Shown here one piece after another: positions 8,531 through 42,835 of a DNA stretch of 64,000 bases. Numbering within the stretch: position 1 is the stretch's first letter; each line of letters starts with the position of its first letter. The position numbers and the translations under genes are program-made. Source of the DNA: a virus; the IMG/VR virus record IMGVR_UViG_3300021197_000868, positions 1 to 64,000 of that record. The stretch is one strand, 5' to 3'. A model generated the notes under the pieces. It was not told where the DNA came from. It saw only the letters and a program-made list of their open reading frames with translations, and searched no databases.

Positions 8531-8546
8531 TGCTTTAAGTAGTGAA
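8531..8546 (-). promoter_or_regulatory. Early promoter-like box, copy 6
   Basis: Exact 16-mer, intergenic. Confidence 0.8.
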
Positions 8547-8573
8547 GTCTTGCAGCACAGCGTTTTCCACTAT

Positions 8574-8985
8574 GCTACGCTCACAAGGTACGAGGCTAGG
8601 GAGGATGGCATATACCATCCATATGGGTGGGGGTCAAGGGGCCGAGGCTTGCGGCTTAACGCATCATGGGGAGCACAACGCTGCTGCTCTGCGTGGTGGC
8701 GTGGTGGCGTAGCACTAGGCTGCTTTGATGCTGCCTTATATGTGAGGAGCATAATGCCACGCAGTGCCACGGTTTAGCGCCCCGCTTATGAAGCAGCACC
8801 GGCCCAGCATTACGCTACGCCCACCATGCGAGCAGCACGCTGCTGCGCAGCGTTGCGCTCGCTACGATAGCCTCATGCTACGGTGGCCTTGCTACGCTGA
8901 GGGCAGTGTAGAACTAACACCGCCGCAGTACCCTTGCTACGCAGCACCCCTTAGGCGGAGCAATAGGCTACGCCGTCATGCTACG
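8574..8985. repeat. GC-rich non-coding tract with iterated GCTACG hexamers
   Basis: GCTACG at 8574, 8814, 8861, 8877, 8891, 8936, 8967 and 8980, inverted at 8708. Confidence 0.7.
8613..8631. repeat. 19-bp inverted repeat, right copy
   Basis: Exact reverse complement of 7455-7473. Confidence 0.85.
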
Positions 8986-9099
8986 CTCCTTATGACCACG
9001 CATAGCGCTCCCAAAAAAATTGACTAAAATCGTAATTCTACCTATACCGCTACCTAAAATTACCGTATATTTCAAAGTCTAGTGTAGCGTGCCAATGTT

Positions 9100-11452
9100 A
9101 TGTCGCCTTCCGATGCTGCTTGGCGACTTCTCAAGAATTATAAAAGTCAAGATTTCATTTTCAACCCTGATTACGGTGCTAGTGGTTATTATAAACCGGA
9201 CAGTAAAGAGCATTTTGTTAACTTAGCGCAATTGCGTGCGCTTGACGAACAAGGCGCTATAGAACGAATAACCAGTACTGGAACCCATGAAGCAATACAC
9301 GCTGCACAAGATAGTGAATTACAACATCTCAGGGGTGAAGATGGAAGAGGTCATTTTAGTGCTCATGAAGTAGGTGCTCATTCCGCTCAAAACCCTTATG
9401 AAATGCAAGATTGGAGAAATTGGCAGATGAGTGAGCACGGTGCTATGAATCCTGATAATTTTGAAACACTAGATAGTGGTGAAAAAAGAAGGAAGGTTAC
9501 TAATCCAAACACTATCAGTGATGTAACTCCAAGAGAAAAAATATATGGGACTTATGAAGATGATGATGAGTTTGAAGATTACGCTTTTGGTGACCATGAT
9601 TTTGCATTGATGTCTAACAAAGAACTTAACCAGTGGGCGAGTGCTTTACGAGCCGCTGAGTTAAAAGATGAGCCTGATTTTAAGACATCGGATGAAATGA
9701 AGAATGACCCTTATTACAGATTTTTACTCGGAAGCAGAGGAAGCAGCCCTTATATTCGGGGTAGCATTGAGGATGAGTTAGAAAGAAGAGTGAGACAGGT
9801 TGATGAAGACGGAGGTTACCATCAAAGAAAGTTCAAACCTGACTTTCAAGACAAACTAGCAAGCGAACCAATGGACATCGCTATGCAATTGTTGAAGGAA
9901 GTAGGTCGTGCTGAATCTTCTCCTACACTTATGGGAAATCCAAAAGCAACAGCATACATAAGCCAAAATAAAGACCCTGCTAACTTACCATGCTCAGTGT
10001 GTGACGGAAATACTACAACAACCATGCCGAAAATGTGGTCGCCCTGCGTCACTAGGTGCAGATGTATTAACAGGCGAACCAATGGACCTCGCCATGCGTT
10101 TGCTAAAATAAATGACCCCATGAAGATGATTACGTTATTGAAGAAGACCTTTATGGAGACTCTAATCAAGCATTAGATAACAGGCACATATACGAATTAA
10201 TGGGTCGAATAAGAGATGACGGGGAAACACATAACTATATTCGCAGTACAATGAATGGAGAAAAGGGTGCAGACACAAGAAAAGAAAAGAAATGTTAAAC
10301 CAAAATCGGTTGGCTGAATTAGAGCAAAAACCAAGAAAGATTTAGAAGAGGTGACACATACCTATTTATCGTAGCGAGCCTATGGACATCGCTATGCAGT
10401 TGTTGAAAGAGTCATATCAATCAAGGTTACCGGACCTCTCGCCCCTACATCCCCTAGCCACCGCCGCCGAACATTCCTGACACCAGATATACCGGGCTAT
10501 CATCGTCGGGGAGGACTACCTGCACGATTACATGTTGAAGGTGACCGTTTTCATTATTAGATTATGATGATAATGTATTAAGTCAACTTGAAGTGATGTG
10601 AACGATTTAGGCTCAAAAAGTATTGAAGACATTATGGTCATACCTGAATTAAATCGTAGAAGAGGACATTATCAAGATTTACTGGAAGCAGCGCTAAGAC
10701 ATGGTTACACAGTTATGAGTGACATGCGAAACGACTCATCAAATCCTTTTCATAAGAAGTTCTTGACTAACTTACCACCTGATATTGAAGCACAAGGGGA
10801 AATTGGAATTGAGACGGAACATGGATTTGATTATGGAATTGATAGAGACTCCGATTACATTTCTGATTTACATGGGGATGCAAGAATAGAATACTCAGGT
10901 AAATACAGCCCCGGAAATGCAATTGGGTGGGGTGACTTACAAACAGAATCTCGCTCTAAAGTACCGATGACTTACGAAACTGATTACCAGCGTTATCAAG
11001 ATAGACTTAATCGAGGAATAAACGCTAACACAGATATTCGGGCTAGGGGGCCTGATGGCGTAAAAAATTATGTACAGAGTCGACTTGATTTATCAATGGA
11101 AAAACCAGTGCCTAGGTGGGTAGGGATGACGGCGACGAACAGAAGCGGAGGAGAGGCTTGGCATGGTGATGGAAGAGTCCCTATGTTACCAACTAATCAA
11201 GGTATAGGGGTCCCTACAGGTATGTCTTACGACCCAGTATTTCATCAAAAAGATAGACCTTTCCACGATATTAACTTCGCTCCTAGTCTACAAGCAGGGG
11301 CAGTGGGTATAGACCCACGGCGATTAACAAGAAGAGAGCACATTGATTCACCAAACTCGTATACTAGTAGACGAGAATATCTTCACAATAAATTAATGAA
11401 CGGCGGTACATTAACGACCCAAGAAATTGAAGAGTATGCGGGGGAATCTTGA
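9100..11452 (+). CDS. Probable single modular polyprotein (HExxH metallopeptidase, Zn ribbon, unknown module, GNAT-like acetyltransferase), broken by several frameshifts at about 10010-10600
   Basis: THEAIH and HEVGAH motifs; CSVC...CRKC spans a frame change; three EPMD(I/L)AM(Q/R)LLK linkers at 9862, 10073 and 10373 not all in one frame; IMVIPELNRRRGHYQDLL resembles GNAT motif A. The track splits it into 9100..10176 and 10598..11452. Confidence 0.6.
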
Positions 11453-11468
11453 TATGAAGCAGCATCAT
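11453..11468 (+). promoter_or_regulatory. Promoter-like box TATGAAGCRRCATCAT, copy 1 of 3
   Basis: Also at 14435-14450 and 15674-15689; each starts 25-26 nt before an ATG. Confidence 0.75.
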
Positions 11469-11477
11469 AAGAGAGAC

Positions 11478-12107
11478 ATGGGCCGAGCCTTCAATATAGC
11501 ATGGGATTTATTGAAATACGAACCTACTAGGTCTATTGGTAGGGATGAAGCGGACCATATGACTGGGTCAGATTACGGTCAAGGTCGTAAAGCACTAAGC
11601 GATGAAGCACGTGAGAAGGCTGATGATTTCCATACCGCTCGCAGAGAGGCTATGCGCCCTAATCGGGGTATGGCGACTGTAGCAGACCCTTCTCAATACC
11701 TGTACTTAAATGACCGTAATCCTTACTTAGACCTGAATAGTCCTGAAACTAATCCATTCCCCGGTGGTATACCTACACTTCAAGAGAGGATGGCTGACAT
11801 AAAAGAGGAGGAAAGAATACAGGACTCAGTTCATGACCTAGTTTCTAACTTTGAGCCTGAACATATGTCCACTTCTGAAGCAAACCCACCTGTTGATATG
11901 GGTTCTACAGTAGAGCCTCCTAAGAGTGACATGAGTCCTCAAGGTAGTTTCCCTACTAGCATGGGACCAACACGTCAGCAAAAGCGTGGTCAGATGGGAA
12001 GAGGAGTAGCAGTAAAGCGCCCCGGATTCAGAAGCAGTGAAGCCATGCCTCTACCTGAATCTGCGAGAGATAGGGAGAGAGAATTAACTTTCAGTAGAAG
12101 GCTATAA
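11478..12107 (+). CDS. Tagged hypothetical protein (MGRAFNIAWDLLK...)
   Basis: Start re-assigned to 11478 from promoter spacing and the N-terminal tag. Confidence 0.75.
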   Translation: MGRAFNIAWDLLKYEPTRSIGRDEADHMTGSDYGQGRKALSDEAREKADDFHTARREAMRPNRGMATVADPSQYLYLNDRNPYLDLNSPETNPFPGGIPTLQERMADIKEEERIQDSVHDLVSNFEPEHMSTSEANPPVDMGSTVEPPKSDMSPQGSFPTSMGPTRQQKRGQMGRGVAVKRPGFRSSEAMPLPESARDRERELTFSRRL

Positions 12108-12119
12108 TGAGGAATAATC

Positions 12120-12986
12120 ATGTCAGCGTTCAGTCATGCTTGGGATTTGCTGAAAGCCCTCAGTCCCGAGGACCTTCAACAAGCGGCTCGTACTGGCGGT
12201 ATAGGTATGACTCCTGAGAGGGGTCAAGCCTACGCTGACGCTGGTCTTCCTTTGAACACAGGTGGTGGTTTTAGAACCATGCCCGATACAGAAGCGCAAC
12301 GATTAATGCGCTACCAAAAAACAGGAAGTCCTGAAGGTATAAATCAGCAAATGGGAAGTGGTGCTACGTTTGACCCTAAAGCCAAAGACCTTGCTGAGTT
12401 TTTACATCAAGATTCAGACACTGGTGGTAATCTTGACATGGATGACCGACTTGAAGACATACATTACATGTTAACACAAGGTCAGTCTATAGAGCCTCAC
12501 TCTGAACCTGATGCACCTCCTGAACATCCGATGAAAGAATACTTGGCCCCTATGCCAAAAGGTAGAGGGGTTTCAGAAGAGTATCAAAAAAGAACAGCCG
12601 CTAGTAATAGGGGTGCGATTGATTCTTACCGTAATAATCAAAAAGAGGGAAATGAGAGAGACTTGAGAGAGTATCTAAATCAACTTCCTGAAAATGAGCG
12701 ATTCCCACCAAGTGAGTTCGCAAGAAGAGGTGACGCTGGTGCATCTGCAAGTGACAAAGCATTTTCAGAAATGAAGAACCGTCAGCAAAGGGCTGAAGCA
12801 GAAAAGCAAAGGGCTGAAGCAGAAAAGCAAATGCTGGCTGAAAGACAAAAAGAAATGATGATGCGTCAGCAAAAAGCAAGGATGAAATCAAAACAGCCAC
12901 CTAAAGGAAGAGCAGGTGGAAGAAGACCGGGTGAAGGTAAGAATGCTTACAAGAATCGAATGCGAAGACAAGGTGGTAGAAGATGA
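12120..12986 (+). CDS. Tagged hypothetical protein (MSAFSHAWDLLK...) with a basic C-terminus
   Basis: GAGG RBS; 21-bp tandem duplication at 12784-12831. Confidence 0.8.
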   Translation: MSAFSHAWDLLKALSPEDLQQAARTGGIGMTPERGQAYADAGLPLNTGGGFRTMPDTEAQRLMRYQKTGSPEGINQQMGSGATFDPKAKDLAEFLHQDSDTGGNLDMDDRLEDIHYMLTQGQSIEPHSEPDAPPEHPMKEYLAPMPKGRGVSEEYQKRTAASNRGAIDSYRNNQKEGNERDLREYLNQLPENERFPPSEFARRGDAGASASDKAFSEMKNRQQRAEAEKQRAEAEKQMLAERQKEMMMRQQKARMKSKQPPKGRAGGRRPGEGKNAYKNRMRRQGGRR

Positions 12987-13258
12987 GAGCATTTGATAAA
13001 GCGTGGCAGATTCTGAAAGAAGAAAGTGTAGGGAAGAAATATGGTTTACCTCCCGGCTTTTCAGGTGACCCCGAGATGTATAATCGTGCAAGAGAAGAGG
13101 ATAATTACAATAGAATAATGGATGAAGAAAGCATGCGTGGTGAAAATCAGGCTCTTGAAAATGTAGGTGAAGCGCCATCAGTAAAAGAATTAATGGATAA
13201 ATTAATGCGTGGCGAGCAATTAACTCGTCACGAGCAAATGATGCTTCAAAGATTCTAA
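12983..13258 (+). CDS. Tagged hypothetical protein (MRAFDKAWQILK...)
   Basis: ATGA overlap; GGTGG RBS. Confidence 0.8.
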   Translation: MRAFDKAWQILKEESVGKKYGLPPGFSGDPEMYNRAREEDNYNRIMDEESMRGENQALENVGEAPSVKELMDKLMRGEQLTRHEQMMLQRF

Positions 13259-13482: not shown

Positions 13483-13631
13483 ACCTACCTGACCCAAGTG
13501 AAATTACCGGCCTTCCCTTATGGGTGCTGTGTGTTATACTAGGGTTAGTAAGTTTCATAGTTACATTCTTTTGGCCCCGCTCTAAAAATGAAATTAGATT
13601 CGTAGACTTAGGTGGAGACTTATGGAAATAA
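13479..13631 (+). CDS. Small single-TM protein
   Basis: GTG start overlapping the upstream stop (GTGA); LWVLCVILGLVSFIVTFFW helix. Confidence 0.6.
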   Translation: MNLPDPSEITGLPLWVLCVILGLVSFIVTFFWPRSKNEIRFVDLGGDLWK

Positions 13632-14497
13632 CTGTGTATGAAGTAGGACCTCGTGATGGTTTACAAGCACTACCTCATGTAGTTTCTATAGAACACCGTA
13701 CTGAGTTAATAAAATTACTTTACGATGCTGGTTTGAAAGAAGTTGAAGAAGTGTCATTTGTACATCCAAAGGTATTACCTCAAATGGCAAATGCAGAAGA
13801 GGTGTTTACTGGTCGTGGCTCTTCTCTTGTTTTGAATAAACGTGGTTTTGACAGGGCGATTGCTGCTGGCGCTGAGAAGATAAACATCGTGCTAAGTCCA
13901 TGTGAATCATTCTGTATGAAGAATATGGGTAAGCGGTATCAAGAATTATTACTTACTTATCGTACATTTCTAAACAGTTATCCTAAAGATAAGGTCAGGG
14001 TCTACATATCAATGGCTTTTGGTAGTCCGGTTAGTGGTGAGTTTAGTAGAAATCATTTAGACATGGTAGTACGTGATGCTAAAATGTTTGGAGATACAGT
14101 CGTCTTTGCAGATACTGTGGGGGTAGCCACTAATGACGACATTGAGTTTGTCGCTGATTTGGCTTTCAAACATAACATGATTCCTGCTCTACACTTACAT
14201 CATAAAGGGAAAGAGGAAAGAGCGCTTTCACTGATAAGAAGTGGACTCTTTGCGGGTATAAAGGAGTTTGATACTAGTATCGGGGGATTAGGCGGGTGTC
14301 CTTTTGCTAAAGGAAGTGGCTCAAACTTAGCAACTGAAACTTTACTTAGATACCTCGAAGTTTGGGGCTTTGAACATAACGTGGATATGGAATTACTAAC
14401 AAAGGCTAGTAGGCTTGCTTTAGAGTTAAAGTCTTATGAAGCAACATCATCGCCTATACTATGGGCGAAGCCTTTGAAATCTGCTGGCAGGTTTTGA
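13622..14497 (+). CDS. hmgL: Hydroxymethylglutaryl-CoA lyase (DRE-TIM metallolyase), auxiliary metabolic gene
   Basis: EVGPRDGLQ, SFVHPK, ADTVG, HLHH, GLGGCPFAKG...NLATE with the catalytic Cys retained. Confidence 0.92.
   Translation: MEITVYEVGPRDGLQALPHVVSIEHRTELIKLLYDAGLKEVEEVSFVHPKVLPQMANAEEVFTGRGSSLVLNKRGFDRAIAAGAEKINIVLSPCESFCMKNMGKRYQELLLTYRTFLNSYPKDKVRVYISMAFGSPVSGEFSRNHLDMVVRDAKMFGDTVVFADTVGVATNDDIEFVADLAFKHNMIPALHLHHKGKEERALSLIRSGLFAGIKEFDTSIGGLGGCPFAKGSGSNLATETLLRYLEVWGFEHNVDMELLTKASRLALELKSYEATSSPILWAKPLKSAGRF
14435..14450 (+). promoter_or_regulatory. Promoter-like box TATGAAGCRRCATCAT, copy 2
   Basis: Starts 26 nt before ATG 14461. Confidence 0.75.
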
Positions 14498-15678
14498 AGT
14501 CGCCTACTAGATTTCAAGATATACAAACCACCCTTCCTGAAATGGATGAACTAGGTTACGGTGCTACAAGAACTGTACACACTCATCCTTCATTACCGGG
14601 TAAAGTCATTAAATTACCTAAACACTCAGCATTTTTTAATAGACAAGCCCACGATTTAGAAACAAATGCAGCGATGAACGCTTTAGCGCAAATGGGTCAC
14701 CCTGTAATTCCCGAAAAACCAGTAATAGTACCAGCACGTATGGAATCAGGAAATGATTACCCTAACCAAGTTATTAGAAAATTACCTGAGTTAGGAATGA
14801 TACAAGATTTCGCCGGGGAGACTGTAAAAGATAGAACAGAAGATAAGCATATTCCGAGAGTGCAAGTCAGACCATCATTATTAAACACCGCTGGGCGTGA
14901 ACTTATGAATAATGATTCACCCTCAGAAATGTCACTAGATGAAGTGAGAGCATTACGAAATAGGAAAAGAACATTTAACAACTCAACGGGGAAAAGGGAC
15001 TTACCTAATTTCTTAGAGTTAGGTGACCTACACAGTGGGAATGTAGTTGGTAGTGGTACTGATGAAGACCCCTTCCAAATCATTGACGGTTATGCCGCTA
15101 TACCTAAAATCAATATGGGGCTTCAAAATTATGCTAGACAATGGAGGAGAATGGACCCAGTGGCAAGAGCCACCTTTAAGAATCTCTTTAGTGATAAATC
15201 ACAATTCGCTGATATAGCGAATTATCACAATAATCCTCATCCAACTGAACCTGAACGTATGCCTAATTTAACTGCGGATGAGTTTGGTACTGATAAGATG
15301 TATGAGGCTGAGCATGAAGGTCGCTCGTTCATGGACGGTGGAGAAGGAAGGCATAAAACACCTATGGATAGAGCCCATGATGAGTATTCTAAGTATCTAG
15401 CAGCAAGAAAGCGTTTAGAATTAATTGATAGTCTTGTAGCAGACCCTCATCAAACAAGAGTAGAAGAATGGCATAACCCATATAATGACATGTCTATTTC
15501 TGATTTAGAGCGTGAGGGCTTTTATGGACCTGATGCAGGTTCTTTATCGAATACAGAAATGGGCTATGGAAGCAGTATGAGTATGGCTCGTGATAGTTTA
15601 CTCCCACCTGATACTTTCACAGGTACTAATCTACGTTTTAAAGACCCTGATTATTGGAAAACCGATGATTCTATATGA
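14461..15678 (+). CDS. Tagged protein-kinase-like protein (atypical Ser/Thr or APH-like fold)
   Basis: LGYGATRTV Gly-loop, KVIK, GDLHSGNV catalytic loop, IIDG; N-terminal MGEAFEICWQVLK tag. Confidence 0.75.
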   Translation: MGEAFEICWQVLKSPTRFQDIQTTLPEMDELGYGATRTVHTHPSLPGKVIKLPKHSAFFNRQAHDLETNAAMNALAQMGHPVIPEKPVIVPARMESGNDYPNQVIRKLPELGMIQDFAGETVKDRTEDKHIPRVQVRPSLLNTAGRELMNNDSPSEMSLDEVRALRNRKRTFNNSTGKRDLPNFLELGDLHSGNVVGSGTDEDPFQIIDGYAAIPKINMGLQNYARQWRRMDPVARATFKNLFSDKSQFADIANYHNNPHPTEPERMPNLTADEFGTDKMYEAEHEGRSFMDGGEGRHKTPMDRAHDEYSKYLAARKRLELIDSLVADPHQTRVEEWHNPYNDMSISDLEREGFYGPDAGSLSNTEMGYGSSMSMARDSLLPPDTFTGTNLRFKDPDYWKTDDSI

Positions 15679-15689
15679 AGCGGCATCAT
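15674..15689 (+). promoter_or_regulatory. Promoter-like box TATGAAGCRRCATCAT, copy 3
   Basis: Starts 25 nt before ATG 15699. Confidence 0.75.
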
Positions 15690-15698
15690 CCGACATCT

Positions 15699-16682
15699 AT
15701 GAGCCGTGCTATTAACGCAGCATTTGACCTTCTTAAAATGCAACATTTTGAACAACAGTACGGATATGAGTTCGTACTAGATGTTATTTCAAAAGCAGTA
15801 CAGGACCCACGTGTAGAGAAAATGCGTATGTTCGTTTTGCAGAATATGGATAGCCCTGACCCTCAAATGAGGAGACAGGCTGAAGAAATGTATCAGCAAT
15901 TAACTGAAGTCATGAGTGGTGCTGGTGGTAAAATATCAGCGGCTACTCCATTAGGTGTTGACCCTTCAGCGCCTCCAGCACCTGAAGGTTTAATGAGTAC
16001 AGGTAATCCTAAAGGTGAAGCCCGACCTATTATGGCTAAAGCATTCAGTGCTTTTCTTGATGCTGAGTTCATCAGGAAGAATGTAGTTGGAACACAGGCA
16101 ACAGGTCGAGGAGGTACACCTGTTCAATACAATATGCCTCCATCAGTAGCATCAATGGCTCAACGCCCTCAAATTGCTGAAATGCAACCTCAGACCACAC
16201 AAGTTCCTCAGCAAGCACCGGGTATGTTTGGTAGATTTAAGCAACCAGTAATGACTGACCAAACTAATTTAGCACCTACTGGTGATAATGTAACAGGTGG
16301 CCCAGCAACAATGAATGTTCAACAAAACGCTGAAAATCCTATGGAGGGATTAGGGGGTATGGGTCAAATGATGGCGGCTCCGGGTGCTCAAGTAACTCGT
16401 ATGCCTCGTCCACAACCATTTGGTTCAGGCATGGGTACGGACGTATATTTTAATGGCGGTAAAGTCCCAGCACCTACACAAAGTTTGGCTGGAGAAGGTT
16501 ACACTGTAGATGACGCTGGGGATTGGGTAAAACCTCCAAATCCTTACGAGAGCAGTGCTAATCGTCAGCGATGGGCAAGAGACTCCAAGTTACCTGTAGG
16601 TAACTACAATTCAGAAGGCGACTATAGGATTAACACAAGAACTGCACAAATGGGTGCGGCTGACCAATTTACTGGCGTTTGA
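15699..16682 (+). CDS. Tagged low-complexity (Q/P/G/M) protein (MSRAINAAFDLLK...)
   Basis: Start re-assigned to 15699; second internal tag-like segment AKAFSAFLDAEFIRK. Confidence 0.75.
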   Translation: MSRAINAAFDLLKMQHFEQQYGYEFVLDVISKAVQDPRVEKMRMFVLQNMDSPDPQMRRQAEEMYQQLTEVMSGAGGKISAATPLGVDPSAPPAPEGLMSTGNPKGEARPIMAKAFSAFLDAEFIRKNVVGTQATGRGGTPVQYNMPPSVASMAQRPQIAEMQPQTTQVPQQAPGMFGRFKQPVMTDQTNLAPTGDNVTGGPATMNVQQNAENPMEGLGGMGQMMAAPGAQVTRMPRPQPFGSGMGTDVYFNGGKVPAPTQSLAGEGYTVDDAGDWVKPPNPYESSANRQRWARDSKLPVGNYNSEGDYRINTRTAQMGAADQFTGV

Positions 16683-16694
16683 TAGGTGATGTAA

Positions 16695-18179
16695 TTGCCT
16701 AAAGACCCTGAGACGGTTGAGAAGTTTTGGAACGTCCTTGCTGGCGCTGGATTAAGAGCACTCGCTGGTAAGAAAGCAACACAAGTTGCTGGGGGAGCGG
16801 CTCTTGGTGGTTTAGCATCTACTGCTGGAAGCGCCGCTACTTCCGCTGGGGCCGCTGCTGGTAAAAAGGGACTGAAGGCTAAGATTGCTGATAAGGTAGA
16901 AGAAGTTAAAGAAAATCCTAAGATGCAAATGCTAGGCGCTGCTCAACAAAGTCTTGACCAAAATCGCATGGCTGCTGAGCAGCAGAAAAGGGACCAACAG
17001 CAACGTGCATCTGAAATGGCACGTTCTAAAGCAGACACGAGTACAGGCGGTGCATTCTCTAAGGCTTGGATGACAATGAAAGGGCAGACGTTTCATCCTA
17101 GTATTGTAGAACATCTCAAAGAGAGAACACCTAGGAGAGGTGAAGTTGAAGTTGCCCCAAGACCTTCTCCTTTTCCAAATCAACCTGATGAGCCTGTAGA
17201 TGTAGAGACTCAACGTGGTACACCCGCTGTAGACGAGCAGGGATTTACAACTCTACCTCAGCAACAAAGTGATGCTATTCAACCCGGTGATATGCCAAGA
17301 GGTAGTGCTAAAAAGATAGCAGTGGGTGGTACACAACCCATAGGTAATTTAAACCATACAATGTTTTTCAATAGAGGTCATCTCCGAGAGCGTGAAAATA
17401 GATTAGAAGGTGAAGGAGACGAAGTAAAAGAAATTATGTCACATTACGCTTCTAAACTAATAGGACCTGATGGTAGATATTTACCAAATGCTAATAAAAC
17501 GGTATCTGTTAAAACTCATCATTTAGATAAACCTAGAACAGCAGCGGATGGGAGTAGAGGTGATACGATAGTTGCTACTATAAGACCACATGATAATCAC
17601 CCTGATTATCCTCAATTACATACTGTGATGTATAGAGGTTCTAATCAACCATTTGACCTTGAATGGGCTAAGCGTTTCAATGTTGGAAAAATAATCAACC
17701 ATGTTAGGAAAGTTAGGCTTAAAAATAGGCTTAAAAAGTCTGAAAACTTGAATAGTATACTGGTTAAAGAAAGAAAAACCCCTGAAGCGATGAGACATAA
17801 GCGTGAATATGATGCTCAGTATAACAAACGCCCTACTCAAGTTAAGTATCGTGAGGACTTAAATCGTGAGCGCCGCCGCCGTGGAATCATGGGAAGTCAT
17901 GACCATATGGATGTTAGTCATACTCAAGGTGGAAAACTCACATTAGAGCCTGAACACTCCAATAGGGCTAGACATTGGAAGGATAAAGGTACACTGAGAG
18001 TAGTGAAGTCAATGAAAGATGATTTAGAATTACTTCGTAATCTACTTCAGGGACCAATGGATGAGCAAGACAAAAAAATCGCTGACGCTACTTTGACAAT
18101 GCTTGAAGAGCAAGACAATGACGAGGAAGAGGAAGAATTATCTCGACCACTTCACGGTGGCGGTCATCTATTTGTATAA
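16695..18179 (+). CDS. Modular protein with an internal tag (GAFSKAWMTMK) and a degenerate HNH-like module
   Basis: GGTGA RBS with TTG start; EYDAQY...R..LNRERR...MDVSH...SNRAR resembles small phage HNH-like domains. Confidence 0.7.
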   Translation: MPKDPETVEKFWNVLAGAGLRALAGKKATQVAGGAALGGLASTAGSAATSAGAAAGKKGLKAKIADKVEEVKENPKMQMLGAAQQSLDQNRMAAEQQKRDQQQRASEMARSKADTSTGGAFSKAWMTMKGQTFHPSIVEHLKERTPRRGEVEVAPRPSPFPNQPDEPVDVETQRGTPAVDEQGFTTLPQQQSDAIQPGDMPRGSAKKIAVGGTQPIGNLNHTMFFNRGHLRERENRLEGEGDEVKEIMSHYASKLIGPDGRYLPNANKTVSVKTHHLDKPRTAADGSRGDTIVATIRPHDNHPDYPQLHTVMYRGSNQPFDLEWAKRFNVGKIINHVRKVRLKNRLKKSENLNSILVKERKTPEAMRHKREYDAQYNKRPTQVKYREDLNRERRRRGIMGSHDHMDVSHTQGGKLTLEPEHSNRARHWKDKGTLRVVKSMKDDLELLRNLLQGPMDEQDKKIADATLTMLEEQDNDEEEEELSRPLHGGGHLFV

Positions 18180-31454: not shown

Positions 31455-32681
31455 ATGTGGGGTTCAGCGTTGATAGAAGACGACTTCGTATCGAAGGCTG
31501 TTCCTAAAACTCAAGAGGCAGTTGAGGCTATCCGTAAGACTTACCGTTTTGCTCCTAATGGTGATGGTTGGTTTAAGTCTAAAATGAACTGTACTGCTGA
31601 TGATTTAGTTAAAAGACTACGTAAGGCACGTAGACATAACAAAGAAAGTAGCACTGAAATTGATGACATGATTAGTGACATTCGTACTATTAAGGCAATT
31701 GAAACTGAAATGACAATTAAAAATCTTTCATGGTCTAGTGATTTAGAGCACTGTGTTAAGGGGCTTGGTTTATCAGATAGAGGTCTGAAACACCTTCGTC
31801 AATTTGGTGAGGCCCGCTCAGTGTCTCTACAGAAGGCTTGTATGTTATGGGATAAGGCTGAAGTGACTTTAAAAATGCTAGATGAGCATGAAGACGTTTG
31901 GGGTAAAGAAGAGCAAGAAGCGTGGGCTAATGCCATGCGAGATAGAAGCAGCGCACGTAAAATGTGGCGCACTGCTTTATTTCAATCTGATAAGTTATCA
32001 AAAGCAGAGCAGAAACGTCTTGAATACGTAAGTGAGCAACTCCTGATTAAAGGTCCTATGTCAGTAAAAATCCTTCAAAGTAATTTGAGTGAAGAAGGAA
32101 TGATAAGTAAGTCATTTACATCTCGTAAGTTTACTACACTGCTTAACATGTTTGGTGAGGAATATGACATCATGAAGGGTAGTAAAAAAGGAACATATGT
32201 TCGCCTTTCAAATGTAGGATTAGTCTTGAAGGATGTATGGTCATACGGCGCAGGTTTCCTCGATGCTGATGGTTACATAACTATCACTGAAAGAGGAGAG
32301 CCTCGTGCTGGTATGATTGCTACTGGTGAGAGAGGGCGTGTACACTGTGAAGACCTCTACAAGACTATGGATTGCGGGATTTTACAACTAGATAATAAAG
32401 TACATAAAAACTCCAAGCGTAGTCAGCATAGACTACAATTTTATTCTAAAGCAGACCTTCGTAAGTTCCTAAACGGAGTTTTACCACATCTGAAAATGAA
32501 AGATACACAAGCAAAAGCGGTGTTAGCATTCATTGAAGAAAAGGACCCTGTACGAAAGGAAGAGTTAAAGCGTTTAGTACGCTACAAGAATTGGGAGGAC
32601 GATTCTCGTAAATCGTCCGAACTCCTTAATTCATGGGGCTTAGACGCAGACACAATAGGTAAGTATGCGGAGGGTCTATGA
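31455..32681 (+). CDS. Free-standing LAGLIDADG-domain protein with a long helical N-terminal region
   Basis: YGAGFLDADGYITI motif; G.........HRLQF....LRKFL..VLPHLKMK..QA pattern. Confidence 0.85.
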   Translation: MWGSALIEDDFVSKAVPKTQEAVEAIRKTYRFAPNGDGWFKSKMNCTADDLVKRLRKARRHNKESSTEIDDMISDIRTIKAIETEMTIKNLSWSSDLEHCVKGLGLSDRGLKHLRQFGEARSVSLQKACMLWDKAEVTLKMLDEHEDVWGKEEQEAWANAMRDRSSARKMWRTALFQSDKLSKAEQKRLEYVSEQLLIKGPMSVKILQSNLSEEGMISKSFTSRKFTTLLNMFGEEYDIMKGSKKGTYVRLSNVGLVLKDVWSYGAGFLDADGYITITERGEPRAGMIATGERGRVHCEDLYKTMDCGILQLDNKVHKNSKRSQHRLQFYSKADLRKFLNGVLPHLKMKDTQAKAVLAFIEEKDPVRKEELKRLVRYKNWEDDSRKSSELLNSWGLDADTIGKYAEGL

Positions 32682-34405
32682 TGGCAGAAGAAGAAAAAGG
32701 TCCAGTTAGTCGTTTCTTATCCGCTATTGCTAGTCCATTCCGTCGTAGGACTACACCTCAACCACAAATGCCCCTGTATACCACTGGTATACAAGAGCCA
32801 GTGCTGGCTCAAGGTATTACCATACCTGCTCTTTATGCTGTAAGCCAAGAGAATCTTATTCTAAGAACTGTCCAATCTAAATTACGTCAAGAGATTTTCC
32901 GACGTGGTTATCACTGGGAAAAGAAGTTTAGAAAGAAATGTATAGAGTGTGAAGAAGAGTTCCATCATGACGTAGAAGTTTGTAAGTCATGCGGTGGTGA
33001 AGTTCGTGACCCTGACCCTGAGCAGGTCATTTACGCTAAGTGGTTATTGAACGAAACCAATGCTATGGAGCAAACTTTCATGGAAGTGCTTGGTGAAATT
33101 GAAAATGACTTAAACGTTGTAGACGATGCCTTTTTACTTTTGATTAAAGAATACTATGTAGACCCTGAAAATGGAGATATTGCTTTCTATCGTGTTAAAG
33201 ATATAGTACGTGGTGACCCTATCTTCATGCGAATTATCGCTGATAAGCGTGGTATTCGTGGAGGGAGATACAAGATTTGTCGCATTCATCGTGACCAAGT
33301 TGCATATCCGGGTCAAGAGCCTAAATGTCAGACATGTGGCTCCCGTCTAGTTGACGCTCATTATGTCAACATGGCGGGCTCAGGTAAGAATCAATACTTC
33401 ACGAAAGGTGAAGTAATTCATATCAGTAAGTATAATCCATCGAAGTTGTATGGTCGTGCTCCTGTTAACACTATGTGGAGACAAGCGATGAGTCTTACAG
33501 CGATGGATAACTACATCTATACTTCCTATCAGAAACGTCGTACTCCAAAGGGTATTATTTCAGTCACTACAGACAATCTTGAATCTATGAAATCGTTTTG
33601 GAAATCTGTTGATGAAAAGATGGAGCGTGACCCTCACTATGTACCTAAAGTGGGTATTGAATCCTCTTCAGGCCGTGGTGGTGTGAACTGGGTTAAGTTC
33701 ATGGACACTTTAGAAGAGATGCAGTACATGGCTGTACGTGATGAGATTCGTAATCGTATCGCTGCATTCTATGGTGTATCATCAATCTTTATGATTGACA
33801 ATGGTAAATCAGGTGGACTGAATAATGAAGGTCTACAGATTCTCGTTACTAATCGTGCTGTGGAGTTTGGTCAGAAAGTTTACACTGACAATTTATTCCC
33901 ACGTATGTTGAAGGAAATGGATGTTACCGATTGGAAATTAACACTCTATCCTAACGAAGAAGAAGATGAAATTACAAGACTACGCCGTGATGAAATGGAA
34001 GTTAACCTAGCACAGCGTATGGCTATGTTAGGTTATAAGCCTGAATTATTAGAAGAAGGGGATAGAGATATTCGCTTTGTTTACAAAAAGCAAGAAGAGC
34101 AACCTCAACCTCCTCAAGGAGGAGCACCACCGGGTATGCCTCCGGGTGGAGGAATGCCACCGGGTATGCCTCCGGGTGGAGGAATGCCACCTCAGATGCA
34201 AGGAGGAGGACCAATGCCGCCATCACAACCCGGTGGTGAAGGACAAGGAATACGTACTCCACGCTCACCAGCAAGACCGCAAGCACGCTCTTCACCCGGA
34301 GCAGGTTCACCTATGTCTAGTGTCCAGCAAAGAGGACCAGCACCTACAATTTCGCAGCAAAATAGTAATGCTATGTTAAACTCAAGGAGGCCGAGAGGTC
34401 AGTAA
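32678..34405 (+). CDS. Portal protein with Zn-ribbon insertions and a Pro/Gly-rich tail
   Basis: EVIHISKYNPSKLYGRAP, MQYM..RDEIRNRIAAFYGVS HK97-like portal motifs; position after TerL. Confidence 0.9.
   Translation: MMAEEEKGPVSRFLSAIASPFRRRTTPQPQMPLYTTGIQEPVLAQGITIPALYAVSQENLILRTVQSKLRQEIFRRGYHWEKKFRKKCIECEEEFHHDVEVCKSCGGEVRDPDPEQVIYAKWLLNETNAMEQTFMEVLGEIENDLNVVDDAFLLLIKEYYVDPENGDIAFYRVKDIVRGDPIFMRIIADKRGIRGGRYKICRIHRDQVAYPGQEPKCQTCGSRLVDAHYVNMAGSGKNQYFTKGEVIHISKYNPSKLYGRAPVNTMWRQAMSLTAMDNYIYTSYQKRRTPKGIISVTTDNLESMKSFWKSVDEKMERDPHYVPKVGIESSSGRGGVNWVKFMDTLEEMQYMAVRDEIRNRIAAFYGVSSIFMIDNGKSGGLNNEGLQILVTNRAVEFGQKVYTDNLFPRMLKEMDVTDWKLTLYPNEEEDEITRLRRDEMEVNLAQRMAMLGYKPELLEEGDRDIRFVYKKQEEQPQPPQGGAPPGMPPGGGMPPGMPPGGGMPPQMQGGGPMPPSQPGGEGQGIRTPRSPARPQARSSPGAGSPMSSVQQRGPAPTISQQNSNAMLNSRRPRGQ
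34127..34191 (+). repeat. 30-bp tandem duplication (PPGMPPGGGM x2) in the portal tail
   Basis: CCACCGGGTATGCCTCCGGGTGGAGGAATG at 34127 and 34157. Confidence 0.9.
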
Positions 34406-34806: not shown

Positions 34807-35130
34807 ATGAGCGATAATACTACTGAAAAGTTAATGAATACACTTATTTCAAAAATGGAAAACATGGACAATGACCTTCAGTCGTTAAAGCACCAAAATG
34901 CTGAGTTACGTAAGGCTCTAAATAATCCTACTTCTCTACTCCGTAAGGCTGGATTTGTAACTTCCACAACTCCTTTGAACGAAGATGTATCAGTCGACGC
35001 ATTCCGTGCTAACGATGATTCTATCATAAAAGGACATGATGACTTTTCTAATTCCGAGATACACCAAATGACTTGGGATGAGATTCACAATATGGCTGAG
35101 CAGGTCAAAGGTACTGAGGTGATTTCATGA
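34807..35130 (+). CDS. Scaffold-like small protein
   Basis: Coiled-coil N-terminus; C-terminal MTWDEIH shared with the protease/scaffold C-terminus (MSWDEVH). Confidence 0.7.
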   Translation: MSDNTTEKLMNTLISKMENMDNDLQSLKHQNAELRKALNNPTSLLRKAGFVTSTTPLNEDVSVDAFRANDDSIIKGHDDFSNSEIHQMTWDEIHNMAEQVKGTEVIS

Positions 35131-35906
35131 GGCCAGTTAAGTCAGATAGAAGTAAAGAAGCAGACGATTTACTAAAGAAAGCAGAATATCTTCTGAAGAA
35201 AGCAGAAGATTTAGACATGATAGAACATGAAGGTGAAGATGTACCTGCTTTTGTCGCTGATGGAAAAGGACCTAACGATAAGAAGTCTAAGAAGTCTAAG
35301 GTATGCCCTGAATGTAAAGGTAAAGGGGATGATTGTGAATGCAATGAATCCGAAGATGAATCCGAAGATGAATCTGAGGGAGACTGCCCTGAATGCGGTG
35401 AAAAAATGAATAAGATGGGTTGCATGAAGATGGGCTGTGGTGGTAAAGTGGCTAAGGGAGCAGATATGGGCTCTCAGCCTAATTTCATTACTTCCTTTGA
35501 TTCTAATCCTCAAAACGTAATGTTTGCTGCTGAAAGCGGAGGACAAACTCGCAACGCCTATTACTCCACTAATCAACATTTATACAATGGTGAAGATGTA
35601 ACCAACAAAGGTTCAATATCTGAATCAGTGAATGTTGAGGCTCTATCTCCTAAAATGAACCCACATGATAGTATACAACGCCAAGTTGAGAACGGAGTGC
35701 TATCAAAGGCAGAAGAGGCACTAGCCAAAGCAAAAGAAGATTTGGCTAAGGCAGTATGTCGTCAATGTGGTGGCAATCAATTTTCAGGCTGTAAGTTAGG
35801 ATTCGGTATGGACTGCCCCGGTTTATCGGGCACAGGCCACGATAACGTTGGCGCTGAAGAAGGTCACCGTGACTCCGCCCCACCATCTGAATGGACTCAA
35901 TACTGA
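35127..35906 (+). CDS. Acidic Cys-rich head-associated protein
   Basis: CPEC x2, CRQC; several LLK/LSK/LAK-A sites. Confidence 0.75.
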   Translation: MRPVKSDRSKEADDLLKKAEYLLKKAEDLDMIEHEGEDVPAFVADGKGPNDKKSKKSKVCPECKGKGDDCECNESEDESEDESEGDCPECGEKMNKMGCMKMGCGGKVAKGADMGSQPNFITSFDSNPQNVMFAAESGGQTRNAYYSTNQHLYNGEDVTNKGSISESVNVEALSPKMNPHDSIQRQVENGVLSKAEEALAKAKEDLAKAVCRQCGGNQFSGCKLGFGMDCPGLSGTGHDNVGAEEGHRDSAPPSEWTQY

Positions 35907-35919
35907 TGGTGGTGTTGAT

Positions 35920-38900
35920 GTGCGAGAAGATGCTGCTGACTGGTATCTAAGAGCACGTTCAGACTTAGTCAAATCTATTCTTGATGAATTAGACTATGAT
36001 TACTCAGTTGGTAATTATGTTCTAGCGAGTGAGAACCTAAGAAGACACGGCTACGATGTAGTTAAAGGCCCTGAAGATTTCATTTGTGATTTAGTAGTCA
36101 AAGAAGAGATGAAAGAGGATGAAAAGTCTTGGAAGGAAAAAATCGCCTCCGGTGATAGAAAAGAGATAGCAGAAGGCCGTTTAGAAAGACGGCAAGAAGA
36201 AAGAGGAAAATTAGAGCAACGTGGTCGTGAAAGAACATATGATACCTCTTATCTTTCTACTGGTTCAACAGCAAACATTGTACCTGACCATCATTGGCAA
36301 AATAGATTTAAAGAATCTACTACTCATGATTTCGTGAGCCTCTTCCCTGATGCTGATATAAAAGAAGACTCTCTTTATCCTAACACCCATCCTTTTCAAA
36401 AGGAAAACCACCCTCTTTTAACGACTAATGTACGTACTGGTCTACCTGCTTTCATTGAAACTTTACGAGACTTATACTTACCTTCTAAACCCGGTGCTAG
36501 TTCTTTAGCAGAGCAAATAAAAAAGCACGAAACAATGCAAGAAAACCATCATGTGAAAAACAATAATTCCAGTGTTACTGGTGTTAAGGATTCTATCACT
36601 GGTGAAATATCACATCCTTTTTCAGGACCTCTTCACGACTCTCACCTTCATGATATGTACTTAGACAATCTTGAAAACTGGAAACATGAAAATCAAGACC
36701 TAGTTGATTCAATTACAAAAAAATATAGTAACCCCGAAGAACAGGATTTTGCTATAGCGCAAGCCCATATGGATAATGCGATAAAAGGCTGGATGAATAA
36801 AGACGTAAATGATAGTGGTATGAGAACATCATTAGGATGGGGTGGTTATAATTTAGGTCTTGAATGGCTTTCACCAACGCAGAGAAATAACGTTGTAGAG
36901 CATTTAATGGGCAGTGGCTCAACATCACAAGGGGCTCAAAAAATATCCATAGATGGGAGTAAGGGTAAGCATATATCAGTTGGTCGAATAAAACGTAATT
37001 TAAAGCATAGGTTCTCTCCTGAGTTTTTCCATCAAATGAGAGGTATAATTCATACTTCTCAGAATCAAAGAAAACATGTTGAGGGAGAGGGCGATGTACG
37101 TGATATGAATGACCATGATTACCAGTTACTGTATGATGCTTTACATGACACTCATCACGAAGAGCATGGAAATATGGCTAATGCTATTATTAATGCTTTA
37201 AATGAAAAGCATGGTGGTGGGGATTCAGAACCACTTACTAGTATTCATGGGTTGAGAAGTTATCCTAAGTTGAAGCAGTCATTAAAATCACAAGATGTAA
37301 TACAAGCATTAGCAGACACTGGTGAAAATGTAATGAATAGGGGAGTAAATAGAGCAGCCTTACTTCATCTTCTTGGGTTAAAACAAACAAAAGATGGTTA
37401 CGAAGTTAACGAAAAAGGGCACTTTAATCACACTGATAGACCATTAAGTGTTGAGGATATGAAAAAACTCGATGAGACAATGGTTGAAAAACGCATAGGT
37501 TTACTAAAAGATAAGATGATTAGGAATGCAGAATCTCACGGTCATTTAGGTTTTAACGGCCCCCATGATGAAGATATTCCTGAAGATGAAAATGATTTAT
37601 GGATGCGTACCCAACACGGTACTGTTGGGAATGGTGCTATATTCAGTATGCCTTTCATGCGTGGTGGGAATGGTCGTAGTTCTTTAGCAAAACTTGAAAT
37701 GTTACATGACTGGATGCCTAAAGATGAAGAAGGTAATAGTCTAATTGGGGATATTACCCCTGAAGGAGCACTGAGAATCAATAATAAAAATGTAGGATTA
37801 TTTGGCTCAGTTGTACCTGCTGATTCTCAAATGATGGATAGTTCGTCTATGGGTCATCATCAAACTCAATCCTTTTGGGATGCCTCCTCTCATAGAAAAG
37901 AAAGTAAAAAGGGGAGATTCAAAAACAGAAACACCAAACAAAGTCATCATATAGGGCATTCTACTTTAGACCCTGAGATAGCAAATACTCTAGGTAGACT
38001 TACTAGAGATGAGAGGGTAGATGCTATTGGTACAGGTGGCTTTACTCACCATCTTGAGGGTCGTTCTACATCAGCGCATAACCCGATAATGCAGAGAGGA
38101 CAAAGTGCTACCGGGATTGAAACTAGAATCCGTGACAATGGTCGTTTAAGTCACAATGTACACACTAGATTAGGTAGAAATCACCCTCCTCATAAACCTG
38201 CTAAAGTTAGAATGTTAAAACACACTGAAATGAAATTACCAAAAAATAAACAACACCGTACTCATACTGGTGACGCTAGAGTGTTTGACGCTGTTCATGA
38301 ATTGTCAGGTAAAAGTAGAAAAGACTTACCTGAGAAATCCACTCTTGAATATCAAGAGAAACTAGAGAGTGCTTTAGATGAAGTTAATCATTTAGAAGAT
38401 ATGGTGACTATGTATGCCGACACTGGAGATGAAATGCCTGACGGTTTAATGGATAAACTGATGGCTGCTAAAATGAATCTAAAGAATCTTGAAGAAGTTG
38501 ACGCTACTACCCTTGCTTCGGGTAGAGGTATGACTCATCATCATAAACAGTTTGACCTAAAAATGGATGGTGACTTAACTGCTATCACACAAATGGCTGC
38601 TAAACTCAAACCTATTATGGAAAAAGAAGACCCTACTGCATTCGATACTACTAACAAATTGAAGTTTCTTTCTAACACATCACGTCTATACCATGATGCT
38701 AATAGAATGCTTATGATAGCACCTAATGATTCACATGGACTAACCACTTATGGTCCCGGTATAGATGAAGAAAAAATAAAATCCGCTAGTGCGATTGCTT
38801 CTGAAATTACTGGTGATACAATAGTTCCTCATCGTAATATGATGCTAAGCACTATGGAACACGGTGTTGACATTACCCATGATATGTCAATTGAAGATGT

Positions 38901-41402: not shown

Positions 41403-42794
41403 GTGTTTAGTGTGTTACTCAGAACTCGACAAGACAACCTCTCCCTTCTCAAAGGGGGTAACGACCTCGTGGTCGCAGGTTACGCTAGTGTCGAACTGGT
41501 CGACAAGCAGGGGGATTTGATTACTCGGTCAGCCTTGAAGGATGCCTTCAAGAAATACATGACAGAGCCTAAATACAGAAACGTGCAACTAGCACATTCT
41601 AACATTCAGGTAGGAGAAGTCATTCCACAATACACAGACAGTGAAGGGAGGTTATGGAAAAGCGAAGTTGACGATGCAGGAATGTTCGTCGTAGTTCAAC
41701 TCAGAAATGACATCGAAAAAGCACGTGAAGTGTCAGCAGAGGTCAGAAAGGGGAACTTAACGGGATTCAGCATCGGAGGACAAGCATTCAAGCGAGTTCG
41801 GAAACATGATAGCAGCCACGGCAATTATCAAGAAATCAGCAAACTCGAACTCCATGAAATCACTATCTGCGAAAAAGGAATAAACCCTGAAGCAACATTC
41901 AAGATATTAAAAGAAGACAAAAATAAGGAGATGAAGAAAATGGCAGATGATGTTATGGAACAGATGAACAGCGTTCTCGAGCGCTTGGAAGGGCGACTAG
42001 ACTCAATGGAGAAGGGCGAATTACCACCTGCTCTAAAAGAGGCTATGAAAGATAAGAAAGGTAAGAAAGACGATGACAAAGACGAAGATAAGTCTGAGAA
42101 AGCGTACAAAGCCGATGATGATGAGAAAGATGAGAAGAAAGATGAGAAGAAAAAATCTGAATACTCTGACGTTATATCTGCTGAATACCTAGATTGGATG
42201 GAGAACACTCTAAAGTCTGCTGGTGTAGATACTACAGGTGCAAGAAACCATTTCGATGGTATCAGTAAAGCAAACCTTGGTTCTACACCTGAAGAACTAT
42301 CTGACTATGATTCTCGCTTCGCAGGACAAGTTAAGGGAAGAGCACAAGAAGGTGGCTCACCATCTACTAACGCACTAAGCCGTGCTGGTCTAACTCGTGG
42401 CGGCTCAGGCTCTGTAGAAAAGAGTGATTTCATCACATCTGTAGACCCTGCTTCACTAGAATACGCATACGAAGTCTTCAAGGCTGCAAAGCAAGAAGAG
42501 CAACTACGTAAGGGTATGGAAGTCAACTTCGAGTCTCGCTTCGCTCAAGAATCCAGTATGGAAATTGAAAAAGCAAAAGCACAGGCTTTCGATGCTCGCC
42601 AACCTCTTGATGAAGTCATGAAGGCTCTTGGAACACTTAATGAAAGAATCGACAACATCGGCTCTTCTGTAGAATCTTCTACAATCGCAAAATCCGCATC
42701 CACTGATTTCGAGGTCCCTTCTACGGCTGACCTTGGTAACATGTCATGGGATGAAGTTCACCAACTCGCTGGAGGATTATTCCGAGGCGAGTGA
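41403..42794 (+). CDS. HK97-family prohead protease fused to a scaffold domain
   Basis: VAGYAS...DKQGDLI, catalytic H (LAHS), GFSIGG Ser motif, HEITICEKGINPEA; coiled-coil C-terminal half. Confidence 0.92.
   Translation: MFSVLLRTRQDNLSLLKGGNDLVVAGYASVELVDKQGDLITRSALKDAFKKYMTEPKYRNVQLAHSNIQVGEVIPQYTDSEGRLWKSEVDDAGMFVVVQLRNDIEKAREVSAEVRKGNLTGFSIGGQAFKRVRKHDSSHGNYQEISKLELHEITICEKGINPEATFKILKEDKNKEMKKMADDVMEQMNSVLERLEGRLDSMEKGELPPALKEAMKDKKGKKDDDKDEDKSEKAYKADDDEKDEKKDEKKKSEYSDVISAEYLDWMENTLKSAGVDTTGARNHFDGISKANLGSTPEELSDYDSRFAGQVKGRAQEGGSPSTNALSRAGLTRGGSGSVEKSDFITSVDPASLEYAYEVFKAAKQEEQLRKGMEVNFESRFAQESSMEIEKAKAQAFDARQPLDEVMKALGTLNERIDNIGSSVESSTIAKSASTDFEVPSTADLGNMSWDEVHQLAGGLFRGE
41921..41934 (+). 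promoter_or_regulatory. Strong translation-initiation element AAATAAGGAGATGA inside the protease gene
   Basis: Identical 14-mer at 42816 and 44030, each 19-20 nt before an ATG (41940, 42836, 44050). Confidence 0.75.
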
Positions 42795-42835
42795 AACTCA
42801 ATAACTAAGAAATGAAAATAAGGAGATGAAAAAAT

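Follow-up and report, generated by a model that had tools for sequence, protein, structure and literature searches.

Why would a virus gene carry three near-identical DNA repeats and, around them, protein-coding text that hops between reading frames? This question is raised by positions 9100 to 11452 of IMG/VR virus record IMGVR_UViG_3300021197_000868, of which we analyzed the first 64 kb (positions 1 to 64,000, hereafter the window) of a 104,930-bp viral contig. The original prediction, made from the letters of the window alone, had read this locus as one beads-on-a-string gene of about 780 residues, whose linker repeats could act as points of module exchange and whose indels were either consensus errors or real decay. 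The explanation that we favor, with a probability of roughly 0.8, is that the locus is one gene carrying a patch of consensus errors, that its repeats are copies of a peptide tag found across a virus lineage, and that this tag may serve to dock the attached modules as cargo.

The repeats encode one peptide within a frame-switching region

A direct-repeat search of the window returned a single three-copy family, at 9862–9899, 10073–10110, and 10373–10410, in which copies 2 and 3 show 76% and 89% DNA identity to copy 1. Over the 36-nt units proper (9862–9897, 10073–10108, and 10373–10408, all on the plus strand), copy 2 matches copy 1 at 28/36 positions and copy 3 at 32/36; the best unrelated 36-mer within the 64-kb window reaches only 22/36. 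The encoded peptide is [S/G]EPMD[I/L]AM[Q/R]LLK, with copies 1 and 3 both reading SEPMDIAMQLLK and copy 2 reading GEPMDLAMRLLK. Copies 1 and 3 differ in four codons, all of them synonymously, and copy 2 differs from each of the other copies by 3–4 synonymous and 3 conservative codon changes. Three-frame translation recovered every peptide quoted in the original prediction, spread over three frames between about 10000 and 10650, and the coding frame switches 12 times between 10008 and 10644. Both the repeats and the frame hopping over about 600 bp are therefore real. The remainder appears clean, as had been claimed: a split-hit screen against the proteins of relatives found no comparable patch in those parts of the 105-kb genome that have homologues, and a 5687-codon open reading frame (ORF) elsewhere in the genome is unbroken.

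The locus is a single 791-residue gene broken by deletions in the record

An uninterrupted 791-residue protein, P0004, is encoded on three Logan/ENA contigs, the longest of 97 kb, and the 90%-identity cluster that holds P0004 also holds both window ORFs, 9100–10176 (358 residues) and 10598–11452 (284 residues). We compared the window with this intact version, protein against DNA, by chaining exact matches to P0004. Residues 1–303 match window positions 9100–10008 exactly, and residues 523–791 match 10643–11449 exactly, with no substitution in the 572 flanking codons. The middle of P0004 was recovered as 12 further collinear segments in switching frames, giving 14 segments and 13 junctions within 10008–10644 of the plus strand; a frame change occurs at 12 of the junctions, and the remaining one loses 3 nt in frame. 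Bases are missing from the window at all 13 junctions (1, 2, 3, or 5 nt), none is inserted, and the summed loss of 23 nt equals the exact deficit of the window (2353 nt) relative to the intact version (2376 nt). The comparison shows that 9100–11452 on the plus strand is a single predicted gene, close to the length first proposed, which this record splits into the two ORFs and fragments.

In its intact form, the gene alternates a short peptide, hereafter the tag, with four modules in the order tag-D-tag-B-tag-E-tag-A. It opens with an N-terminal tag detected by motif scan (PSDAAWRLLK, 9106–9135), followed by module D (9136–9861), repeat copy 1, module B (9898–10072), repeat copy 2, module E (starting INDPHEDDY, 10109–10372), repeat copy 3, and module A (10409–11449). 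Module B is broken in the record by a 2-nt loss at about 10009, and the stop codon after copy 2 is the product of a 1-nt loss.

The frame changes between 10008 and 10644 are very probably consensus errors of this record, not biology, because the differences are deletion-only and biased to single-base runs, and the flanking codons hold no substitutions. In a brute-force test, lengthening an existing single-base run sufficed to recover the P0004 residues at 10 of the 13 junctions; contractions from the intact version to the window include A5 to A3, C5 to C4, A7 to A5, and C6 to C4. Real frameshifts would instead make the middle of the gene a decaying pseudogene in this genotype, with only the two flanking ORFs expressed. 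The NCBI and JGI/IMG records do hold the same broken version, the ORF at 10598 has a GTG start, and the modules can work as separate genes, judging from relatives. However, the two records are very likely one and the same assembly, run-length changes are typical of base-calling or consensus error, and neutral decay after a first frameshift should also have built up substitutions beside the 13 deletions; we consider decay very improbable. The contrary expectation that relatives encode the pieces as separate, independently initiated genes holds in part, in that tag-started separate genes exist (P0019 and P0011), but fused forms coexist with them. The patch coincides exactly with the modules exchanged among relatives, and its position fits the earlier suggestion of a poorly supported consensus within a hypervariable island. 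Programmed frameshifting or slippage is ruled out by 12 frame changes in 640 nt and by the existence of an intact ORF. Nor is there support for translation starting internally at the Met of EPMD: the upstream G/S-E-P is conserved with synonymous variation, and no ribosome-binding-like sequence was seen by eye upstream of this Met in the window.

The repeats belong to a peptide tag shared across the virus lineage

The tag has the consensus x-P-[F/M]-[D/E]-x-A-[W/F/M]-x-L-L-K and is 10–12 residues long. A regular-expression scan of the six-frame translation gave seven window matches to the core A-[W/M]-x-L-L-K, each on the plus strand and between 9118 and 13001, and looser inspection added three tags at 14470, 15708, and 17052. 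The genome total is 10, all on the plus strand and all within 9.1–18.2 kb. Six genes open with a tag, namely the 791-residue gene and those starting at 11454, 12120, 12983, 14461, and 15675; a seventh, starting at 16695, has an internal copy.

A HMMER search with P0004 against 1.84 billion representative proteins gave 58 hits, nearly all of which have either the start M-x-[P/A]-[F/M]-[D/E]-x-A-W-x-L-L-K or an internal [G/S]-E-P-M-D-[I/L]-A-[W/F/M]-[R/Q]-L-L-K; the highest number of tags per hit is seven, in a 1040-residue protein. P0019 starts with MLNPFDNAFQLLK followed by TNDPHEDDY, and the corresponding internal junction of P0004 reads GEPMDLAMRLLK followed by INDPHEDDY; therefore, the internal linker and the N-terminal leader are the same element. 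As far as sequence comparison can tell, the three DNA repeats are thus shown to be internal copies of a lineage-wide tag.

The genome encodes a terminase, a portal, an S78 prohead protease, and a major capsid protein whose only GenBank relatives are those of the haloarchaeal siphoviruses HVTV-1, HCTV-1, and HCTV-5 (32–34% identity) and of a methanogen virus. It also encodes a family B DNA polymerase (PolB), an ERCC4/XPF nuclease, a PD-(D/E)XK nuclease, and, beside this replication-repair block, a group II (thermosome-type) chaperonin (Cpn60_TCP1, E 2.5e-123, genome positions 76613–78088, minus strand). Magroviruses, which are assigned to Marine Group II archaea, have genomes of about 100 kb and a capsid protein 33% identical to that of haloviruses only (PMC5434244). 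Because the genome size, the capsid identity, and the possession of its own replication module with PolB agree with that description, the genome matches a magrovirus-like archaeal virus in its predicted gene content.

The back-translated linker was found in at least 119 IMG/VR stretches and in two stretches among 185,579 prokaryote genomes (596 Gb), and the strict N-terminal pattern in 45 IMG/VR stretches and in none of the prokaryote genomes. Overall, about 400 copies of the tag occur on more than 150 viral DNA stretches. The two prokaryote matches are short contigs, L124 (NZMJ01000140.1, from a Maricaulis sp. metagenome-assembled genome, MAG) and L125 (NZQM01000026.1, from a Parvibaculum sp. 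MAG), each with one linker tag; because each also carries ten homologues of the window genes at 18.3–26.9 kb, both are probably mis-binned magrovirus-like contigs. Homologues of untagged window genes are present in 111 of 121 linker loci and in 27 of 35 new loci found with the N-terminal pattern, the remainder being short. Among GenBank phages, neither nucleotide nor protein searches matched the region, P0004, or P0009, and single-protein locus searches of IMG/VR gave one distant match, L001, and nothing else. A literature text search with tag motif strings found no relevant paper; the magrovirus papers examined mention no tag, polyprotein, or hypervariable island, and their mentions of acetyltransferases and thermosomes have no bearing on this gene.

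In about 1.07 Mb of DNA fetched for the linker loci, we counted 407 tags, of which, by the distance to the upstream stop, about 113 are N-terminal, 33 ambiguous, and 217 internal; 20 tags end 10 or fewer residues before a stop codon. At 143 distinct linker sites, the residues are fixed and the synonymous codons vary widely, with Leu written as TTG, TTA, CTG, CTC, or CTT and Ala by all four of its codons, indicating that selection acts on the peptide, not on the DNA. The residues after the Lys of the tag are unconstrained. Where the window has its tagged island, the syntenic relative L117 carries an unbroken row of eight or more tagged genes and, after them, a long ORF in which two tags are internal. 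In other relatives, tagged ORFs stand between head and neck genes, after the giant protein, or among tail genes, and they always lie on the strand of the morphogenetic genes, as do the tagged genes of the window.

Modules are exchanged at the tags

To compare architectures among relatives, the HMMER hits were cut at the tag and the pieces clustered. In addition to the four-module form of P0004, we found tag-D-tag-C-tag-A (P0007), tag-C-tag-E-tag-A (P0010), tag-E-tag-G (P0011), module E alone behind a tag as an 87-residue protein (P0019), and tag-A in about forty proteins. Chains thus hold two or more unrelated domains, combined differently among relatives, in up to seven units. From the alignment, we estimate that P0007 and P0004 share about 93% identity across module D as far as the first linker, and directly beyond that linker they are unrelated; past the next linker, similarity is back at an estimated 45% or so. 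In the alignment, this break in identity is a recombination footprint at the tag. The predicted proteins show that modules are gained, lost, and exchanged exactly at tags, which bears out the proposed beads-on-a-string gene with exchange at its linkers. Local DNA similarity at the tags clearly still allows recombination.

The identified modules are enzyme-like

Module A is the commonest tagged module, accounting for 46 of 95 modules in the HMMER hit set, and has a conserved core comprising RRQGYY, an S-x-x-R-N segment, and S-x-P-F-H-x-K-F. The AlphaFold2 (AF2) model of P0009, which is 69% identical, has a predicted local distance difference test (pLDDT) score above 90 over residues 80–200. All top Foldseek matches of this model are GNAT acetyltransferases (E 5e-4, probability 0.94–1.0), and the top VIA-align matches are also GNAT proteins (Z 7.3, root-mean-square deviation 3.8 Å, 106 residues aligned). 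Two tagged relatives match Pfam Acetyltransf_1. Module A itself has no Pfam match, its profile gave only chance-level matches against PDB sequences, and its RRQGYY departs from the motif A-like R/Q-x-x-G-x-G/A of GNAT proteins (the beta4-alpha3 segment). A GNAT-like fold is probable from the predicted structure.

Module D contains HEAIHAAQ, an instance of HExxH, and a conserved AHE[V/I]GA, as seen in an alignment with P0007, P0020, P0030, and a 179-residue stand-alone form in L001. It has no Pfam match, its AF2 model is unusable (pLDDT 43), and an atlas lead to LPD23 is sub-threshold (score 0.87); on its motifs, module D is a candidate zincin-type metallopeptidase. No other module is peptidase-like, and nearly all tagged loci lack module D. 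With CxxC-x8-CxxC in the intact protein, module B is a small zinc ribbon, visible only after allowing for the 2-nt loss. Among 82 long tagged ORFs of relatives, Pfam detected DUF5872 (5), DUF3293 (3), GNAT (2), HD_4 (2), SAM lyase (2), and YAcAr/SLOG (1), and PHROGs detected phrog_6437 (26), metal-dependent phosphohydrolase (2), a lysin, and an endolysin. ArdC and methylase domains were not found by Pfam among the tagged relatives and module D. By these matches, the identified modules are enzyme-like.

The tag may dock modules onto a common receptor

In the AF2 model of P0009, both tags are short isolated helices between low-confidence segments. In a helix projection, positions i, i+3, i+4, and i+7, which hold the conserved F/M, A, W/F/M, and L, share one face, and the P-x-D start is typical of a helix cap, a geometry suggestive of a docking helix that inserts into the groove of a partner. 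The receptor would be viral and common to all modules, because one peptide is under purifying selection on dozens of unrelated modules, at either end or as linkers, within one lineage. We tentatively propose, at somewhat less than even odds, that the helix face (F/M, A, W, L) would dock each tagged module onto this receptor, most plausibly the procapsid interior or scaffold, by which enzyme-like accessory modules would be packaged and delivered with the DNA; fused forms would perhaps be cut at or near the tag. The procapsid is favored as the receptor because of the morphogenetic-gene context, the enzyme-like modules as in polyvalent proteins (PMC5512222), and the analogy with T4 and encapsulin cargo. 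A cargo role is also consistent with the highly basic tail of one tagged protein and with the GNAT, SAM lyase, HD hydrolase, YAcAr/SLOG, and lysin modules of tagged proteins. A fuller version, in which a position-independent cargo-loading peptide would act through procapsid capture, cutting by the S78 protease where needed, and injection with the genome, is possible, though on balance doubtful.

The nearest described class is that of the polyvalent proteins of Iyer et al. 2017 (PMC5512222), in which a single tailed-virus polypeptide likewise combines multiple unrelated modules, most of them enzymatic. Their architectures are combinatorial, they include an HExxH possible peptidase and HD hydrolase, SLOG/YAcAr, and acetyltransferase modules, and their delivery together with the DNA has been proposed. 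In contrast, that paper describes no conserved peptide at module borders or at the N-termini of stand-alone modules (the word 'linker' is absent from its text), and it notes a paucity in archaea, whereas the present lineage is archaeal-type (PMC5512222). The domain network of that class comprises, among others, MPTase, ArdC-N, methylase, SNF2, RelA/SpoT, and LPD domains (PMC5512222); of its hallmarks, ArdC-N, a verified MPTase, and methylases were not detected in the present modules.

The internal proteins of phage T4 (IPI-III and Alt), in work by Mullaney and Black from 1996, reportedly carry an N-terminal capsid-targeting sequence that is removed by the gp21 prohead protease. There, too, an amphipathic, aromatic N-terminal peptide of about 10 residues is common to unrelated enzymatic or basic cargo as a plug-and-play address, and in the window a short N-terminal peptide stands on several unrelated proteins of one virus (six genes). 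The gp21 motif is L/I-x-E, however, and the present tag ends in L-L-K; the T4-type protease contrasts with the S78/HK97-type protease here; and the present tag also occurs internally and C-terminally, up to seven times per chain, with packaging and cleavage being proposals in this case. Encapsulin cargo-loading peptides, said to have been described by Sutter et al. in 2008, resemble the tag as short terminal peptides that address diverse enzymes into an HK97-fold shell and work when fused. Unlike the tag, they are usually C-terminal, rich in Gly, Ser, and Leu, and not helical, they serve cellular compartments, and they have no sequence similarity to it. In phage P1, the Dar proteins have, to our knowledge, no shared address peptide, and the present modules have no homology to them. 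The P1 Dar system (DarA, DarB, DdrA, DdrB, Hdf, and Ulx) consists of head-packaged anti-restriction proteins (PMC12810830; PMC5512222); the likeness to the proposed cargo role is that these accessory counter-defense proteins become part of the head and are injected from it. For DdrB, proteolytic processing precedes packaging (PMC5512222).

Among the alternatives, the tag could be mainly a proteolytic site, so that the S78 protease or module D would cut the chains, as true polyproteins, behind L-L-K, and N-terminal tags would be removed as propeptides, as gp21 reportedly does with the T4 capsid-targeting sequence. The tag stands exactly at module borders, and stand-alone modules start with it; module D carries HExxH, and metallopeptidase processing of polyvalent proteins was proposed by Iyer et al. 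2017 (PMC5512222). At residue 34 of the capsid protein, ELLK precedes AD, and the alignment pairs it with an MSK that likewise precedes AD in the capsid protein of HVTV-1, which carries an N-terminal extension of 73 residues. Another cleavage lead, the FKILK that closes the protease domain, was rejected: it is simply the last strand of the S78 fold and aligns with KFGVV in HVTV-1. However, the free choice of residues after the Lys, the 20 C-terminal tags, where a cut would release nothing, and the rarity of module D, with its unusable model, all speak against a mainly proteolytic role, which we regard as doubtful. Cleavage at the tag is possible but unsupported, and it is compatible with docking, the two not being mutually exclusive.

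Alternatively, the tag could dock modules onto an intracellular hub of host or viral origin, in the latter case a non-structural protein, with the group II chaperonin as an example. The spacing F-x-x-x-W-x-x-L on a short amphipathic helix, which the tag shows, is a classic helix-in-groove docking geometry; moreover, the tag is tolerated at any chain position, the virus encodes its own thermosome-type chaperonin, and the island of the window stands apart from the head genes. This reading is rather unlikely: the tagged genes of relatives are interleaved with head, neck, and tail genes on the same strand, and the absence of the strict pattern from cellular genomes gives no sign of host-motif mimicry. 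The least likely reading of the tag itself, and a distinctly improbable one, is that the repeats are kept mainly as DNA recombination signals for cassette exchange with an incidental peptide; although exchange falls exactly on the repeats, copies 1 and 3 are 89% identical, and the dangling C-terminal tags resemble recombination scars, the fixed residues and varying synonymous positions at 143 sites, the synonymous nature of all four differences between copies 1 and 3, and the same helix pattern in N-terminal tags of another spelling (PFD against EPMD) argue for the peptide.

Several observations weigh against the overall explanation of one gene, an error patch, and a lineage-wide docking tag. 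Two of the 13 junctions are not explicable as simple run-length changes, and the 5-nt loss lay outside the test; the comparison with the intact version sets protein against DNA, not DNA against DNA; and the junction-spanning pattern of the intact version had no match among JGI metagenome contigs. In this virus, neither the capsid protein nor the protease/scaffold nor the portal contains the strict tag pattern, and HVTV-1, a related cultured halovirus, has no match to the tag pattern. The tagged island of the window lies about 20 kb upstream of the head genes, the tags near stop codons leave nothing for a cut to release, and module D is not a general processing enzyme, because it is rare among tagged loci.

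Neighboring genes and other features

Downstream of the 791-residue gene, all on the plus strand, the tagged island continues with a gene at 11454–12107 (AFNIAWDLLK at 11487–11516), whose product is largely low-complexity, a character that dominates two of the tagged window proteins. The next gene, at 12120–12986 (AFSHAWDLLK at 12126–12155), encodes a protein with a strongly basic C-terminal tail, and the identical protein occurs on six contigs from four sources. A 91-residue gene at 12983–13258 (AFDKAWQILK at 12989–13018) was found by motif scan, and the tagged genes at 14461–15678 (AFEICWQVLK at 14470–14499) and 15675–16682 (AINAAFDLLK at 15708–15737) by looser inspection. The last, at 16695–18179, is a conserved gene with an internal tag-like AFSKAWMTMK (17052–17081) and, by profile match, a C-terminal phrog_6437 domain; its homologues adjoin tags in 73 fetched loci. 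An untagged HMGL-like gene (pyruvate carboxyltransferase/aldolase-type) lies inside the island at 13622–14497, and its homologues adjoin tagged genes in at least 28 fetched loci; a link to acetyl-CoA-using GNAT modules is speculation.

The DNA motif ATGAAGCRRCATCAT (encoding MK[Q/R]HH) lies at 11454, 14436, and 15675, 24–25 nt upstream of three tagged-gene starts. At 11454 and 15675 it is in frame and yields an 8-residue extension ahead of the tag, likewise in L117; at 14436, it is one base out of frame. A GC-rich (54%) region of about 500 bp at 8540–9010 separates the leftward from the rightward gene block and holds five of the six window copies of TGCTACGC (1.07 expected in the whole window). 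It is conserved in L117, has a mildly unusual fold energy (z -2.2), and is without an Rfam match, as is all of 7–19 kb, where no Rfam families were found; it could be an origin or a promoter/iteron region.

The genes for the capsid protein, protease/scaffold, and portal occupy 41403–44011 and 32678–34405. Among the structural genes, the C-termini of the protease/scaffold (42740–42794) and of a small ORF downstream of the portal gene (34807–35130; shared part at 35070–35130) have M-[S/T]-W-D-E-[V/I]-H in common, which may be a common capsid- or portal-binding tail. An ORF of 1839 residues (35848–41367), a few genes downstream of the portal and directly before the prohead protease, has no Pfam match; in HVTV-1 (L123), a 1313-residue protein annotated as 'zeta toxin' lies a few genes upstream of the prohead protease. 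The giant 5687-codon ORF spans genome positions 53585–70648, and its homologues in relatives have at least 4041 codons. A large LamGL-like jelly-roll protein has been described in Poseidoniales viruses (PMC11706807).

Significance

The burst of frameshifts is itself ordinary, being very probably an error patch, and the interest of the locus lies in the tag. The public record splits one 791-codon gene into two truncated proteins and spurious small ORFs, which annotation and clustering inherit. In magroviruses, which abound in the ocean as viruses of uncultured archaea, most genes are unannotated; one short peptide now joins dozens of these genes into one class, seven of them in the 9-kb island of the window. 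The tag marks where modules start and end and explains hypervariable islands as the outcome of cassette exchange at the tag. If the tag is indeed a packaging or docking address, it would give a direct experimental handle on an unculturable virus group, and the polyvalent, injected-effector strategy would then reach into archaeal viruses, a group in which a paucity was noted by Iyer et al. 2017 (PMC5512222). If the cargo-loading reading is true, magroviruses would possess a plug-and-play arsenal whose cassettes recombine at the tag, and archaeal viruses would gain their first described address-tag packaging system, a counterpart of the T4 capsid-targeting sequence and the encapsulin peptides.

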